From: an uncultured archaeon
GTDB lineage: Archaea > Asgardarchaeota > Thorarchaeia > Thorarchaeales > Thorarchaeaceae
Assembly (NCBI GenBank): GCA_964610875.1
Contig: CAZSWP010000002.1
Location: 1-64,000 of the forward strand
Length of the DNA: 64,000 bases
Direction of reading: 5' to 3'
Shown here piece after piece: positions 54,722-59,948 of the stretch (positions are counted from its first letter, which is position 1; every line of letters begins with the position of its first letter). The position numbers were made by a program, and so were the translations under genes. A model generated the notes under the pieces. The model made no database searches, was not told where the DNA came from, and was given only the letters and a program-made list of their open reading frames with translations.

Positions 54722-57652
54722 ATGTCTGAAAAGAAACCCAAAGGAATCGTGATTAGTGAAACGCACTGGGACCGTGCATGGTACTTGACATTCCAACAAT
54801 TTAGATTGAAATTAGTAAAACTCACAGATAAGCTTCTGAATATTCTAGAGAATGACCCTGCGTTTACGCACTATACATTCGATGGACAGACAGTAGTTCT
54901 TGAGGATTATCTTGAAGTAAAACCAGAGAACGAAGAAAGAATTAGAAAATTAGTAAAAAACTCCAGGATTCACATAGGTCCCTGGTATGTGCTCCCAGAC
55001 GAGTTTCTTGTATCAGGAGAAGCTTTGATCAGAAATCTATTGATAGGACGTGGTATTGCAGAACTGTTCGGAGAATGCATGGATGTCGGATACATTCCAG
55101 ATCCATTTGGTCATGTTAGTCAAATACCACAGATACTCAATCAATTCAATTACGATTCTGTGATTTTTGCAAGAGGTATGGGAGAAGAAGCAGAGGAGTT
55201 GGGGTCTGAGTTCATCTGGAAAGCATCTGATGGCAGTAGCATTTTTGCACATTGGCTACCTCAGTCATATGGTAATATTGCATCACTTCCAGAAGATGTG
55301 GATGATGCGGTTTCCGTAATTGAAGAGATGATAGGTAAGCTTGAACCTTGGTCGAAGACAGATGTTCTCTTGTTAATGAATGGTTCAGATCATCTTGAAC
55401 CTCAGAAACACATTCCAAAGGTAGTGGAAACCTACAATGAACAGCATGAGAGATATATCAAAATAGGAACGCTTCAGGAATTCGTAGAGTATATTCGGAC
55501 AATGAAAGGAGAGCTTAAAGAATACTCTGGAGAGTTTAGAGAACCACGGTTTCAGAATCTTCTATCGGGAGTATATTCAGCAAGAATCTATCTCAAACAG
55601 GCCAATGAATATTCTCAAAGATATCTTGAACGAATGGTAGAACCTTGGTGCACTGCCGCATTGGCATTGGGTGCAGCTTATCCTGCTCATGAATTGCGTA
55701 TGGCTTGGAAATATCTGATAAAGAATCATCCACACGATGATATCTGCGGATGCAGTATTGATCAAGTCCACGATGACATGATGCAGAGATTCAGATGGGT
55801 AGATGAGATTGCTGATGCCTTGTTAGATGAAGCACTGGACTCGGTCCTCTCAGAACTTCAAAACAGTAAACCATCAATTGTAGTATCCAATGCAACACCT
55901 CACACACGTTCAGGAATAGCAGAGATTGAACTAGCTGTTTCAAACATACGTTTTACCAGACTAGGTCAAATTCGTCTCAAAGACCCAGATTATAAAGCAG
56001 ACAATCCATTAGATGCTGCAAGGAATGAAGCACATGTCGCTTACATAAGGACCCACGGATTTGATTTGCCTCCAAATGCGACTAGAGAAATCAAGATGAA
56101 TGGTGAAACGCTCACAGAGTTCGAGTTTGATTTCACAGGACTAGCAATGCTGTTTCCAGAATTAAAGGATTCACTTCGACACCTATCAACGGTGTATAGA
56201 ATCCGAGTAAACTCAAACAATAGAGTAGTAGAGGTATTTGCAAGGAAATATGATGCTTCAGATAAGATGAGAGGCGTTCCAGTCCTATTTGATTCCGAGG
56301 GAAATCAGATTCCAACACAAGTACTAGGATTTTCTGTCATGAAAGATGAGAAGTCACACTTGATCGCAGATCAAGAAGAATTCATCAGGTTGGCAATCAG
56401 TGCGCAAGATGTTCCAGCGCTGGGTATGAAACGTTACAACGTTGATCTCAGAGAACAATCAGATGACGATGTAAATCCAGAAGATGTAGTAAATTGTACT
56501 GAAGAAATCCTGGAAAATGAGTTTGTTATGCTCAGACTTCAAGAAGATAGCAGAATCTCTTTGACCGATAAACGTAATGGAGAGGTCTATAATAACCTGC
56601 TTGAGTTTGAAGATACTGCAGATGTTGGTGATGAGTATGATTATTCACCAGCACATATTCCCGTTGATATAAGATCTGCCGGACAAGAAGTTGCACTGGA
56701 AGTAATTCATGAAGGACCAATTATTGGTTCTTGGTTGCTATCAGGTGCTCTCGAATTACCTATCGCAGCAACAACGGATGATTTGACTAGAGAACAGATG
56801 ACTGAGATTTGTGATTATGTGATGGAAGTCACTCTCATGTCAGGGTCTCCTACTGTCTATGTCACCATTCTGTTTGACAATAGGGCACTTGACCATCGTC
56901 TTAGGGTTTTATGCCCAACTGGTACAAAGACAGAAACTTGTAAAGCAGATAGTACATTTGACATAATCGAGAGGCCTGTACGACCGAAACCTCACGATGA
57001 TTGGGTTCAACCAGTTGTTCCAACATATCCACTCAGAAGCTTTGTCACAGTTCAGGATGAAAAGCGAGGTTTGATGCTTACAACAGAAGGTCTGCTTGAA
57101 TTCGAGATACTCAAAGAACAAGGAAATACTATTGCACTCACATTGCTAAGAGCAGTGGGTTGGTTATCGAAGATTGGATTGAAGACTAGACGGGATGCCG
57201 CAGGACCTGTGTTGGAAACTCCAGGTGCGCAATGCTTAGGCACAAATATCGCGGAATTCGCAATTACACCTTTGGTGGGTGATAGTACACTCGAAGATAC
57301 CTTGAACCACTCAGAAAACTACCTGATCCCATTAGACGGTCACTTTCTACCGGCATCTGATACTAAAGAGGGCGTTTCAGAAATTGGACTAATTGAAATT
57401 ATACCATCACTCATACAATTATCTGCCTTCAAGCAATCAGAAGACGAAAAATGTATCATCCTGCGTTTCTGGAACTCATCACAAGAAACTCAGAAATGTA
57501 AAGTGAAACTGGGATTCTCTGTAAACAAAGTAACATCCTCAAGGATGGATGAAGAAGAGACTGATTGGTACAGTATCAAAAAAGTTGGCGGCAATGAATT
57601 CGAATTCGATATCACAGGTCGCCATGTGGCGACACTCCGATTATACAAGTGA
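54722..57652 (+). CDS. Glycoside hydrolase family 38 alpha-mannosidase (mannosylglycerate hydrolase-like)
   Basis: ETHWDRAWY, DGQT, GPWYVLPDEFL, PDPFGH, NGSDH, HPHDDICGCSID, TLLRAVG. Confidence 0.9.
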   Translation: MSEKKPKGIVISETHWDRAWYLTFQQFRLKLVKLTDKLLNILENDPAFTHYTFDGQTVVLEDYLEVKPENEERIRKLVKNSRIHIGPWYVLPDEFLVSGEALIRNLLIGRGIAELFGECMDVGYIPDPFGHVSQIPQILNQFNYDSVIFARGMGEEAEELGSEFIWKASDGSSIFAHWLPQSYGNIASLPEDVDDAVSVIEEMIGKLEPWSKTDVLLLMNGSDHLEPQKHIPKVVETYNEQHERYIKIGTLQEFVEYIRTMKGELKEYSGEFREPRFQNLLSGVYSARIYLKQANEYSQRYLERMVEPWCTAALALGAAYPAHELRMAWKYLIKNHPHDDICGCSIDQVHDDMMQRFRWVDEIADALLDEALDSVLSELQNSKPSIVVSNATPHTRSGIAEIELAVSNIRFTRLGQIRLKDPDYKADNPLDAARNEAHVAYIRTHGFDLPPNATREIKMNGETLTEFEFDFTGLAMLFPELKDSLRHLSTVYRIRVNSNNRVVEVFARKYDASDKMRGVPVLFDSEGNQIPTQVLGFSVMKDEKSHLIADQEEFIRLAISAQDVPALGMKRYNVDLREQSDDDVNPEDVVNCTEEILENEFVMLRLQEDSRISLTDKRNGEVYNNLLEFEDTADVGDEYDYSPAHIPVDIRSAGQEVALEVIHEGPIIGSWLLSGALELPIAATTDDLTREQMTEICDYVMEVTLMSGSPTVYVTILFDNRALDHRLRVLCPTGTKTETCKADSTFDIIERPVRPKPHDDWVQPVVPTYPLRSFVTVQDEKRGLMLTTEGLLEFEILKEQGNTIALTLLRAVGWLSKIGLKTRRDAAGPVLETPGAQCLGTNIAEFAITPLVGDSTLEDTLNHSENYLIPLDGHFLPASDTKEGVSEIGLIEIIPSLIQLSAFKQSEDEKCIILRFWNSSQETQKCKVKLGFSVNKVTSSRMDEEETDWYSIKKVGGNEFEFDITGRHVATLRLYK

Positions 57653-57664
57653 CTTGGAAGATGC

Positions 57665-58393
57665 GTGATGAATACTGATTCGATTGAACAAATAGTAATT
57701 GATCATGCACCAATTCTACATTTTCATCCAAATGAGGGACAATTCTGCTGCTATCCTAGTGATGCAGAAGAGGTCTTCGATAAATACTCAGAAAGATGGG
57801 AAGAATTCATAATTGATATGACGCCAAATGATCTGAATCCTGATACTCCAGTCTATTATGAATATTGGAATGACCTGGGCTTTCACCAGATACGATATTG
57901 GTTCTGGTATAAATATAACAGATTCCCAGGTGCGAAGTTCGGTCTCGGTGAACATCTAGGAGACTGGGAACATGTTGAAGTCAGGATATTTGAAAAACAT
58001 GAGAAGCAACCCAAGGTTGTTGTCTGGCTTGTTTCAAATCACCTAGAGTTTCGTATTGCATCCTCACCCAATGAGTTCACACTCAAGGACTATGAAACAA
58101 AGAACCCAATTCTGACAGGAACACAACTCAATACTTGGGTAGCACTGGGATCTCACGCGCATTATCTTGCACCAGATGATGAACCATACTGTGTCTTGAA
58201 GATACTGTGTGATCGATTTTCTGATGGTGGAGAGGTATGGAACACCAGAAATTCACTCATTCCTCTCTCATCGACTAACTTCTATAATTACACTGGTCGT
58301 TGGGGAGACAAGAAAGCACCAAGAAGTCCAACTAACGAGTACAACAACAGATGGCGAAATATTCCTGCTCTAGCGGTCAGACAGAGACTCTAG
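57665..58393 (+). CDS. Vps62-like protein
   Basis: APILHFHPNE, YWFWYKYN, GEHLGDWEHV, GSHAHY, YTGRWG. Confidence 0.75.
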   Translation: MMNTDSIEQIVIDHAPILHFHPNEGQFCCYPSDAEEVFDKYSERWEEFIIDMTPNDLNPDTPVYYEYWNDLGFHQIRYWFWYKYNRFPGAKFGLGEHLGDWEHVEVRIFEKHEKQPKVVVWLVSNHLEFRIASSPNEFTLKDYETKNPILTGTQLNTWVALGSHAHYLAPDDEPYCVLKILCDRFSDGGEVWNTRNSLIPLSSTNFYNYTGRWGDKKAPRSPTNEYNNRWRNIPALAVRQRL

Positions 58394-58473
58394 TCAGATA
58401 CTTGATGTACTAGTATGTGCATCTATGTACTATATTGCACAATGTTTATAAAAGACCGTCATTGTTCACGCTC

Positions 58474-58700
58474 AACCACTTCCGAGGAAGATTATACAAG
58501 ACAACAAGTCTGTTACAGTGGATTTGCGTTTCTCTTACCTCATTCAAGCGAAGAAGGAGAGAGGGTACCTGTATAATCACCTATCCTCAGCGAATGTACA
58601 TCTTAGCATGGGATTCTGGCGCGTTTCTGAACCAGTTTTGAAAAAGCAGTGGCTTGCTTTCCAAATCCAGCTTGCCTCGGGAGTGGTTCTATTTTCTTTA
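58474..58700 (+). ncRNA. Structured RNA copy 1 upstream of the his operon
   Basis: TATA TTTATAAAA 58445-53; 14-bp closing stem 58474-87/58675-88; internal 9-bp stem 58490-98/58570-78; T-tract 58689-58700; motifs shared with copy 2. Confidence 0.6.
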
Positions 58701-58756
58701 TCGGGATGTACATATTTGAGCAGTAATGTTTAAATGCGGACGTCAAAGGAACACCT

Positions 58757-58933
58757 TGAGAGGAATAACAGTGAGGTCTTGCGTTCATCCGAGGCGATTG
58801 TCTTCATTGAAGTCCAGAAGGACATAGACACATCGGGAGAAACACAGGCAGAGATTCCTCCGAATTCTGATTTCTTGAATAGGCTTTTCTTTGTTAGAGA
58901 TGACTCCGTTCGAGAAACATATGGTTCCTCTCA
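58757..58933 (+). ncRNA. Structured RNA copy 2 / hisG 5' leader
   Basis: TATA TTTAAAT 58729-35; closing stem TGAGAGGAA 58757-65/TTCCTCTCA 58925-33; alternative partner ATTCCTC 58854-60; motifs shared with copy 1. Confidence 0.6.
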
Positions 58934-58961
58934 GACATTAGTTTTAGAAATGGTGGTTAAT

Positions 58962-59948
58962 TTGACTACAGTGAAATTTGTAATTCCAAAGGGTCACCTC
59001 ACAGAGGAGAGCATTACACTACTGAGAGCCGCAGGCTACACAATACGTGGTGAAGATCGTACATACAAACCTACTATCAATGACCACCATATCGAGCTTA
59101 GGATTCTCAGACCACAAGAGATTCCAATCTTTGTGGAGGAAGGTCTCCAAGATATTGGAATCACAGGTCAAGATTGGATTGAGGAAACCAAAGCTGATGT
59201 TGTTGAACTTGCGAATCTGGGTTTTGGAACAGTCCGGCTTGTAGTGGCTGTACCCAAAGAGTGGGATGAGATCAACTCGCTTGAAGATCTTTTAGAAAAT
59301 AGAATTGCAACCGGAAAGCAACTCAGAGTGTCAACGGAGTATCTCAACATTGCAAAAAATGCTTTACTTTCTAATGAGGTCTATCAAACAAGTTTCCCAG
59401 GTCTGCAGCCACAGATCATCACACCATGGTGGAAATGCGGAAACAATGAACAGGTGGGAGTATATCTTTCATTCGGAGCAACCGAGGCAAAGACTCCACT
59501 CGCTGCCGATGCAATTGTTGAAGTTGTTGATACAGGTACGTCTCTCAAAAGGAATGGTCTGAAAATTATTCATGAAATCATGTCTTCGTCAGCAGTTCTC
59601 ATTTCGAATAGTAGCGTTCTCGAAAACCCTTCTTCAAGAGAAAAGGTCTATGATATCCTTACACTGCTGCGAGGAGTGATTGAGGGGAGAAGAAAGCTCC
59701 ACATTTTTGTAAATGTGCAGAAGAGAAACCTCAATGAACTCTTAGACAGACTTCCTGCACTCAAATGTCCAACAATATCAGAACTCTCAGACAGCGAGTG
59801 GGTGGCAGTCAATACTATCATTGACAGAGATGAGTACCTCATGATGATTCCGGAGTTAAGGAGATTAGCTCAAGGACTTGTTGTCTATGAACCTAGGCAG
59901 GTCCTCCCACTAGAAAAGGATCTTATCGGAGGCGAGTATATTGAGTAA
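58962..59948 (+). CDS. hisG: ATP phosphoribosyltransferase (long form)
   Basis: FVIPKGHL, LRPQEIP, DIGITGQDW, SFGATEAK, DTGTSLKRNGL, C-terminal regulatory domain; TTG start after GGTGGT SD (alternative ATG 58950). Confidence 0.92.
   Translation: MTTVKFVIPKGHLTEESITLLRAAGYTIRGEDRTYKPTINDHHIELRILRPQEIPIFVEEGLQDIGITGQDWIEETKADVVELANLGFGTVRLVVAVPKEWDEINSLEDLLENRIATGKQLRVSTEYLNIAKNALLSNEVYQTSFPGLQPQIITPWWKCGNNEQVGVYLSFGATEAKTPLAADAIVEVVDTGTSLKRNGLKIIHEIMSSSAVLISNSSVLENPSSREKVYDILTLLRGVIEGRRKLHIFVNVQKRNLNELLDRLPALKCPTISELSDSEWVAVNTIIDRDEYLMMIPELRRLAQGLVVYEPRQVLPLEKDLIGGEYIE

Follow-up and report, generated by a model that had tools for sequence, protein, structure and literature searches.

A conserved leader upstream of hisG in Thorarchaeota and Bathyarchaeia: a candidate double +1 frameshift sensor for histidine

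Introduction

In the +1 frameshift of bacterial prfB, the gene for release factor 2, a Shine-Dalgarno (SD)-like sequence stands 3 nt before a shift-prone XUU codon in the P site, which is followed by a slow A-site codon. The zero frame is closed a short way downstream, and how often ribosomes shift serves as a measure of how much of the A-site decoding factor is available (PMC5009743). The eukaryotic antizyme +1 frameshift acts as a metabolite sensor within a biosynthetic feedback loop (PMC5009743). The enterobacterial hisL attenuator (RF00514) is a short translated leader before hisG whose decoding depends on charged tRNA-His, and the T-box (RF00230) lies upstream of amino acid genes, including his genes in Firmicutes, and has a cognate codon. 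Here, we analyze a leader that resembles hisL and the T-box in the features just named and prfB in the layout of its cassettes; that its A-site codon would be slow, and that a frameshift would serve as metabolite sensor as in antizyme, are proposals. The leader lies upstream of hisG in a 64,000-nt stretch of DNA from an uncultured archaeon of the Thorarchaeaceae (assembly GCA_964610875.1, contig CAZSWP010000002.1, positions 1 to 64,000 of the forward strand; hereafter, the window).

In archaea, a 2021 review lists a single programmed frameshift, a −1 event in one gene (PMC8211752). Our literature searches returned no paper on an archaeal his leader and no published account of such amino acid sensing in archaea. 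To our knowledge, no amino acid-sensing leader has been experimentally demonstrated in these organisms. A preliminary description, made from the letters of the window, had seen in front of its his operon two tandem, diverged copies of one promoter-plus-structured-RNA unit and had proposed a new riboswitch or attenuator family. We find instead that the second copy (copy 2, 58706-58961) belongs to a leader family shared by two archaeal phyla and is probably a ribosome-mediated, frameshift-based histidine sensor, as judged from patterns of sequence conservation.

Results and Discussion

The leader precedes a his operon of the order hisG-D-C-B-H-A, with the long form of hisG (58962-59948; HisG and HisG_C domains in Pfam) at its head. 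Between the stop of the open reading frame (ORF) at 57665-58393 and the hisG start (TTG 58962) lies a gap of 568 nt; all features described here are on the plus strand. Comparison of this gap with related genomes by BLAST returned a stretch of 35 to 40 nt (58768-58811) that is 85-89% identical across genera, and the invariant core of the family is a 35-nt direct repeat at 58772-58806, 155 nt before hisG. We defined the family by the core pattern TGAGG-N7-TTCA-N(1 or 4)-WGGCGRTYGYNTTCA, with hisG following on the same strand after 107-181 nt; copy 2 has this core, and the first copy (copy 1, 58424-58700) does not. So defined, the leader precedes hisG in at least 70 Bathyarchaeia and, within the Thorarchaeota, in 14 genomes from the family to which the window belongs. 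A scan for the core pattern across one genome per GTDB species matched at least 118 stretches, nearly all from Bathyarchaeia with the Thorarchaeota in addition, and 78 of the 80 loci examined have a same-strand hisG start at that distance (107-181 nt), the remaining two being truncated by the end of the locus. All 13 other genomes of the window's family with this hisG type have the core upstream; further, among 400 Asgard genomes, the core occurs only in this family, as a single copy in each of the 14 genomes with this hisG type and in no others, and a reversed control pattern gave zero matches in the same set. Hence, the earlier proposal of a new family holds for copy 2, which belongs to a conserved group of cis-regulatory leaders strictly linked to hisG and absent from Rfam. 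A scan of the genome for single cassettes yielded scattered matches to a loose pattern, with no control, which we read as chance.

What the family conserves is, in large part, translational. Across 83 non-redundant leaders, from which all frame statistics below are taken, the core lies in a short upstream ORF (uORF) of 15 to 24 codons with the conserved beginning M-R-x-C-V-H-x-R-R-L-x-S. Its start codon is ATG in 64 leaders, GTG in 12, TTG in 7 and CTG in none, and every one of the 83 carries an SD-like 4-mer at -16 to -4 of that start. The uORF of the window (58771-58827) reads MRSCVHPRRLSSLKSRRT, with a GTG start, 17 more codons and TAG at 58825-27; its SD-like element, TGAGAGGAA (58757-58765), ends 5 nt before the start. 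Within the core, two repeats follow one another, each composed of an SD-like AGGNGAU, 3 nt, NUU and the His codon CAY. Specifically, cassette 1 of the window (58773-58788) comprises the SD-like GAGGTCT, TGC, GTT as the putative P-site codon and CAT, its His codon (58786-88) lying in frame 0, while cassette 2 (58792-58807) comprises AGGCGAT, TGT, CTT as the putative P-site codon and CAT, its His codon (58805-07) lying in the +1 frame. In the family, unit 1 reads GAGG(G/T/A)NN, 3 nt and NTT, and unit 2 reads AGGCGAT, 3 nt and NTT in 83/83 leaders, such that an SD-like element stands about 3 nt upstream of a P-site codon, the arrangement that typifies prfB.

The P-site codon NTT occurs with all four first bases at both sites (GTT, ATT, CTT and TTT), and the NTT-CAY segment thus keeps TT while its first base, and hence the encoded amino acid, varies; the same is seen in the second repeat, despite its other phase relative to the uORF (it reads D-C-V-H in the +1 frame). 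As third codon positions are invariant while the amino acid varies, selection acts at the level of the nucleotides. In addition, a pyrimidine follows TTCA in 166 of 166 cases, although the search pattern imposed no base there, which makes the codon always His and never Gln.

The two units are spaced by 4 nt in 81 leaders and by 1 nt in 2, never by 2 or 3 nt, though the pattern allowed both; therefore, the second His codon always falls in the +1 frame. That frame is closed upstream by the invariant TGA of xTGAGG, has no start codon before the second His codon in 68 of the 83 leaders, and stops within 0-2 codons past that codon in 78. From the second His codon to hisG, frame 0 and the +1 frame hold means of 4.55 and 4.25 stops, respectively, and neither is open in any leader. 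The +2 frame holds a mean of 0.17 stops and is open in 71/83; in the remaining 12, it stops at most 41 nt before hisG. In dinucleotide shuffles, the probability of an open frame is about 0.05 per sequence, and the spacers concerned fall into at least nine clusters with more than 20 different lengths. Relative to hisG, the +2 frame ends at +10 (43 leaders), +5 (18), +11 (4), +1 (2) or +4 (1), and in two leaders, including that of the window, it is fused to hisG. The window follows the family pattern throughout: the uORF is in frame 0, the second His codon is in the +1 frame, a +1-frame TGA follows at once (58808-58810), and the +2-frame spacer (58806-58961), counted from ATT 58806, runs for 52 stop-free codons in frame with hisG, the other frames containing 4 and 6 stops.

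An open frame that ends at or fuses with hisG could also mean that the long frame codes for a real small protein, or for an extra N-terminal part of HisG, of which the core is merely the conserved N-terminus. Openness in 71/83 leaders is what such a protein would give, as is a slight excess of third-position change. However, the +2 peptide is barely conserved, with 19% of codon differences being synonymous in the +2 frame, vs 15-16% in the other two frames, and it varies from 34 to 60 codons in length, and Pfam offers no match to it (nor to a 71-aa ORF, a 74-aa ORF or the hisG extension of the window). In seven of the 83 leaders, the +2 frame lacks any ATG, GTG or TTG ahead of the second His codon, and in two of those seven a TAG interrupts it inside unit 1; further, the nucleotide constraint on the core does not follow the +2 frame. 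We therefore consider a selected protein product highly improbable. Because the peptide is barely conserved, the frame pattern suggests instead that what is selected is the passage of ribosomes along an open path.

The model that we propose for copy 2 is that of a regulated his operon leader with a prfB-like double +1 frameshift sensor for histidine, a model we favor by a small measure over its being wrong. Transcription from promoter 2 would yield an mRNA with a 5' untranslated region of about 15 nt carrying the SD-like element, and ribosomes would start at GTG 58771. With charged tRNA-His plentiful, the first His codon would be read and translation would stop at TAG 58825. With tRNA-His scarce, the A site would stand empty, and the P-site tRNA on GUU or CUU could re-pair one base forward on UUC, a slip in which G34 would exchange a wobble G-U for a G-C pair and which the upstream SD-like element would aid, as in prfB. 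Where NUU is followed by C, two of three pairs are possible after the slip (three of three for CUU and UUU), the His codon being presumed slow under starvation. In the +1 frame, cassette 2 would repeat the test: a decoded His codon would lead to an immediate stop at TGA 58808, while a second +1 slip would bring the ribosome into the sole frame that stays open across the leader. With two cassettes in series, entry into the +2 frame would need two failures to find His-tRNA. In most relatives, the +2 frame ends within 12 nt past the hisG start, which would suit termination-reinitiation; in the source genome, it continues without a break into hisG, the reading that the 404-codon ORF described below represents, and the product would be a HisG with an N-terminal extension. 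A ribosome translating the leader would, in addition, follow the polymerase across a T-rich tract within the leader, TTTTCTTTGTT (58885-58895), a possible site of premature termination with similar tracts in relatives. We infer both the step from hungry codon to slip and that from leader translation to hisG expression.

Compared with prfB, the presumed slow codon here is a sense His codon rather than UGA, which would make His-tRNA the thing sensed; the leader has a pair of serial cassettes (0 to +1 to +2); after the shifts, ribosomes would read a nonconserved spacer that would deliver them to another gene or, as in the window, is fused to it; and the host is an archaeon rather than a bacterium. 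Unlike hisL, the leader has one in-frame His codon vs seven, we found no conserved terminator and antiterminator hairpins, and the output seems to be a switch from one frame to another. Antizyme differs in that it senses polyamines through nascent peptide and mRNA elements, at a stop codon, and shifts once; moreover, a high metabolite level raises antizyme shifting, whereas here scarcity would raise it. If the model is true, a change of reading frame, and not a hairpin, would report tRNA-His charging, which would be a new coupling of translation to biosynthesis and the first regulatory +1 frameshift in archaea.

Several points weigh against this model. The GUU to UUC slip leaves the first anticodon position mismatched, and two successive slips multiply two efficiencies. 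We know of no demonstration in archaea that SD-like sequences stimulate events during elongation, and the source metagenome-assembled genome (MAG) contains no 16S gene, such that SD-like elements were called without its own anti-SD sequence. Leaders beyond the 13 Thorarchaeota loci were gathered with the motif itself, and the invariance of TGAGG, TTCA and GGCG in motif-collected leaders is thus partly by construction. Finally, an in-frame GTG stands at -10 in many Bathyarchaeia, and unit 1 of most leaders contains a TTG (+8) in the +2 frame; the long frame may therefore be initiated independently there.

One alternative is a leader peptide that acts by stalling alone: a pause at the single in-frame His codon (58786-88) would alter RNA folding or polymerase coupling with no change of frame, thereby allowing hisG expression, and the long frame would be translated from its own start. 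The uORF, its SD-like element, its start codon and its conserved His codon are all well supported and would serve such a mechanism, T-rich tracts and SD-proximal pairings are present, and the in-frame GTG(-10) or TTG(+8) exists in most +2 frames. It leaves unexplained, however, why there is a second, out-of-frame cassette of fixed +1 phase and why the +1 frame stops immediately. A single His codon would be a weak sensor, conserved alternative hairpins were not found (by RNAalifold on 13 leaders or in helix z-scores over 83), and the seven leaders without a +2-frame start would lack the means to begin the long frame. On balance, we regard stalling alone as unlikely.

The preliminary description had suggested a ligand-responsive RNA, binding His, tRNA-His, phosphoribosyl pyrophosphate (PRPP) or 5-aminoimidazole-4-carboxamide ribonucleotide (ZMP), with a speculative resemblance to the T-box, built as two tandem structured units in which a 5' strand switches between alternative partners. 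Some features fit this view: the leader is long (about 190 nt) with a G+C (GC) content equal to that of coding DNA (0.40-0.445 across the gap, as in the flanking genes), CAY is present in both units, and copy 1 has a fold z-score of -2.1 with a 14-bp closing helix. The distal pairing described for copy 2 also exists, as TGAGAGGAA (58757-65) pairs with TTCCTCTCA (58925-33) over 9 bp in the minimum free energy (MFE) fold, making the SD-like element of the uORF also the 5' arm of a helix with a z-score of -2.35 in the window. As a conserved switch, however, the pairing fails: the mean z-score of this 5'/3' helix over the 83 leaders is -0.4, and we rejected a conserved long-range helix. Likewise, RNAalifold on the 13 Thorarchaeota leaders found nine weak pairs and -3.9 kcal/mol, with double changes at two pairs, each in one sequence only, and no convincing covariation. 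An Rfam cmscan of 58200-59200 at E <= 10 returned just two chance-level matches, JPX_2 and sR35. At that threshold, the T-box model RF00230 was unmatched, and neither Stem I, nor a specifier loop, nor the T-box bulge with UGGN was detected; the His_leader model RF00514 was also unmatched, and the leader has no His run and no conserved hairpins. Downstream of the core, sequence and length vary and yet one frame stays open, and copy 1 lies outside the family. A structured ligand- or tRNA-binding RNA is thus, in our estimation, very unlikely. The attenuator half of the earlier proposal comes nearer to the truth, because a start codon, an SD-like element, His codons and a three-frame stop pattern are what is conserved.

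Further pairing-based ideas were examined and dropped. By eye, the leader was compared with the tRNA-His gene of the genome, and no extended codon-anticodon context was seen that would point to complementarity or mimicry; nor does the leader contain a UGGG to pair with the CCCA end of tRNA-His. The segment GAUUGUG resembles the tRNA-His anticodon loop, and most relatives have GCG there. A role for the core as an anti-SD of the hisG SD was also discarded, as the core is unchanged where that SD is GGAG instead of GGTG. In Bathyarchaeia, subgroup consensus folds suggest local pairings (GATTGC/GCAATC, GGGATTGCG/CGCAAYCC and, near the SD, TTAGA/TCTAA), which differ between subgroups.

The observation of two copies is confirmed in part, and the claim that they are two homologous units is not supported. 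Every motif listed for the two copies is present (GAGGAA at 58484/58760, ACAGTG at 58515/58768, TTGCGTT at 58524/58779, TCATT[C/G]AAG...AGAAGGA at 58540/58804 and TCCTC..GAAT near 58583/58854), and a repeat search recovers two pairs, 58441-61 with 58725-45 (21 nt, 71%) and 58540-63 with 58804-27 (24 nt, 75%). In a strict local alignment of 58394-58705 with 58706-58961, the promoter part alone aligns, with a score of 22 against 18.4 +/- 2.3 for shuffles, a score reached by 44 of 500 shuffles; a permissive colinear alignment scores 35.3 against 23.5 +/- 3.5, with 1 of 300 shuffles as good. These alignment statistics give modest support to two copies of one unit. A profile built from 12 other Thorarchaeota leaders matches copy 2 at E = 7.5e-23, its single match in the whole assembly, and does not match copy 1 at E <= 10. 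By profile, only copy 2 is a member of the family. Because the alignment is weak, the profile misses copy 1 and no relatives of copy 1 occur among 40 related genomes, copy 1 is, on the sequence evidence, a decayed local duplicate of promoter and leader, private to the source genome, that has lost its cassettes; as a member of the leader family, it was rejected. A dispersed repeat or miniature inverted-repeat transposable element (MITE), which the preliminary description had named as an outcome that would undo its proposal, was also rejected because the region is single-copy in the 3.75-Mb assembly.

Copy 1 nevertheless retains structure of its own. Promoter 1, AATGTTTATAAAAG (58441-58454), is nearer the family consensus CAATGYTTATAT than is promoter 2. 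The body of copy 1 (58474-58688) is closed by a 14-nt inverted repeat, 58474-87 with 58675-88 (93%), which is the distal pairing that had been described, and a T-rich tract follows (58687-58701), a possible archaeal terminator. In the phase of hisG, copy 1 also holds an open frame (58452-58733), with 93 stop-free codons (58452-58730) followed by TAA 58731-33; the probability of 279 open nt is 0.006 for this frame and 0.02 for any frame. The frame begins past a hisG-phase TAA at 58449-51, within promoter 1, and its own closing TAA lies immediately before ATG 58734, which begins a 404-codon ORF (58734-59948) that comprises hisG plus an upstream in-frame extension. From 58449 to the end of hisG, the hisG-phase frame is interrupted by these two TAAs alone, one inside each TATA-like box. 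The first canonical start in the copy 1 frame is GTG 58518 (71 codons), with no SD-like element nearby. The aligned stretches of the copies, TCATTCAAG...AGAAGGA and TCATTGAAG...AGAAGGA, are in the same codon phase, BLASTP of the copy 1 frame against the copy 2 extension found no similarity, and copy 1 has no TTCAY cassettes and thus no His sensor. This frame may be residual, or it may be a sensor-less route from promoter 1 into the hisG frame. The fullest version of our proposal is that archaea of two phyla gauge histidine by a +1/+1 frameshift at hungry His codons, with the twice-shifted frame reaching hisG; that in the window the two are fused, such that starvation would give an extended enzyme; and that the sensor-less upstream duplicate could provide a second, histidine-independent entry (promoter 1, the 93-codon frame and the TAA before ATG 58734). 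We give this whole an even chance of being right. The frameshift model, if true, would account for hisG gene calls with apparent N-terminal extensions, among them the 404-codon ORF.

Independent initiation of hisG in the source genome may be low. Its SD-like GGTGGT (58952-57) and start TTG 58962 lie within 58952-58969, where the MFE fold allows a local hairpin (58953-59 with 58963-69); in this 7-bp hairpin, the SD-like sequence can pair with the first hisG codons (TTGACTAC), and the hairpin would add to the weakness of a TTG start.

Upstream of the uORF, promoter 2 (58706-58736) consists of an ATGTAC-type box, ATGTACAT (58706-13), and AATGTTTAAATG (58725-36), its TATA-like hexamer beginning 42 nt before the uORF start; the corresponding distance is 41-45 nt in 80/83 leaders. 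Six of the 49 ATGTAC matches of the window fall within 58405-58713 (about 310 nt), where about 0.24 are expected. Two of these boxes, at 58405-10 and 58425-30 upstream of promoter 1, are candidate transcription factor sites, and two ATGTAC(A) boxes, at 58594-601 and 58706-13, are palindromic (ATGTACAT). In Thorarchaeota relatives, a copy of the box, at times a pair with 10-nt spacing, stands about 20 nt before the TATA. We take it to resemble the TGTACA boxes bound by TrpY in methanogens, and it is a candidate transcription factor site that would act alongside the leader. In the region about 20-45 nt before the uORF, Bathyarchaeia leaders (L031-L109) have further shared features: some 20 nt ahead of the TTTATTAG box stands another conserved box, GACAGTTAAATATTAG, and between TATA and uORF they have an inverted repeat that varies in sequence yet stays palindromic (GGAAGACA..TGTCTTCC, AAACGC..GCGTTT and GCGC..GCGC); Thorarchaeota promoters have neither this second box nor the varying inverted repeat.

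The nearness of the core to the predicted transcription start raises the question of whether the direct repeats are themselves an operator, to which a histidine-responsive protein would bind, as RNA or as DNA just past the transcription start, to block translation or transcription, with the long frame being separately initiated and coupled to hisG. Archaeal repressors often act near the transcription start, and the core is a linear, sequence-conserved direct repeat without internal fold, much as a protein-binding site would be. On the other hand, no candidate regulator gene is conserved beside the locus in the Thorarchaeota relatives inspected, and the core is kept across two phyla while the promoter-proximal boxes differ. 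The start codon signature, the pyrimidine-only position, the NUU codons and the three-frame stops would, moreover, all be coincidence. We consider an operator improbable.

The distribution of the family is patchy. Of 61 genomes sampled from the window's family, 14 have this type of hisG, always with the leader, and many Bathyarchaeia have it as well, their HisG proteins being 50-60% identical. This pattern suggests that the his operon, together with its leader, was passed between the two phyla or repeatedly lost, and the shared leader would be a marker of such a transfer between Bathyarchaeia and Thorarchaeota. Contigs labelled as Acidoferrum, Limnocylindrales and Nanoarchaeia (L041, L091, L106 and L109) carry a typical Bathyarchaeia-type leader and hisG, and they are probably mis-binned in those MAGs.

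Further upstream in the window, 54722-58393 encodes a GH38 alpha-mannosidase (976 aa) and then a 242-aa ORF without a Pfam match; these neighbors are unrelated to histidine metabolism and are not kept beside the leader in relatives.

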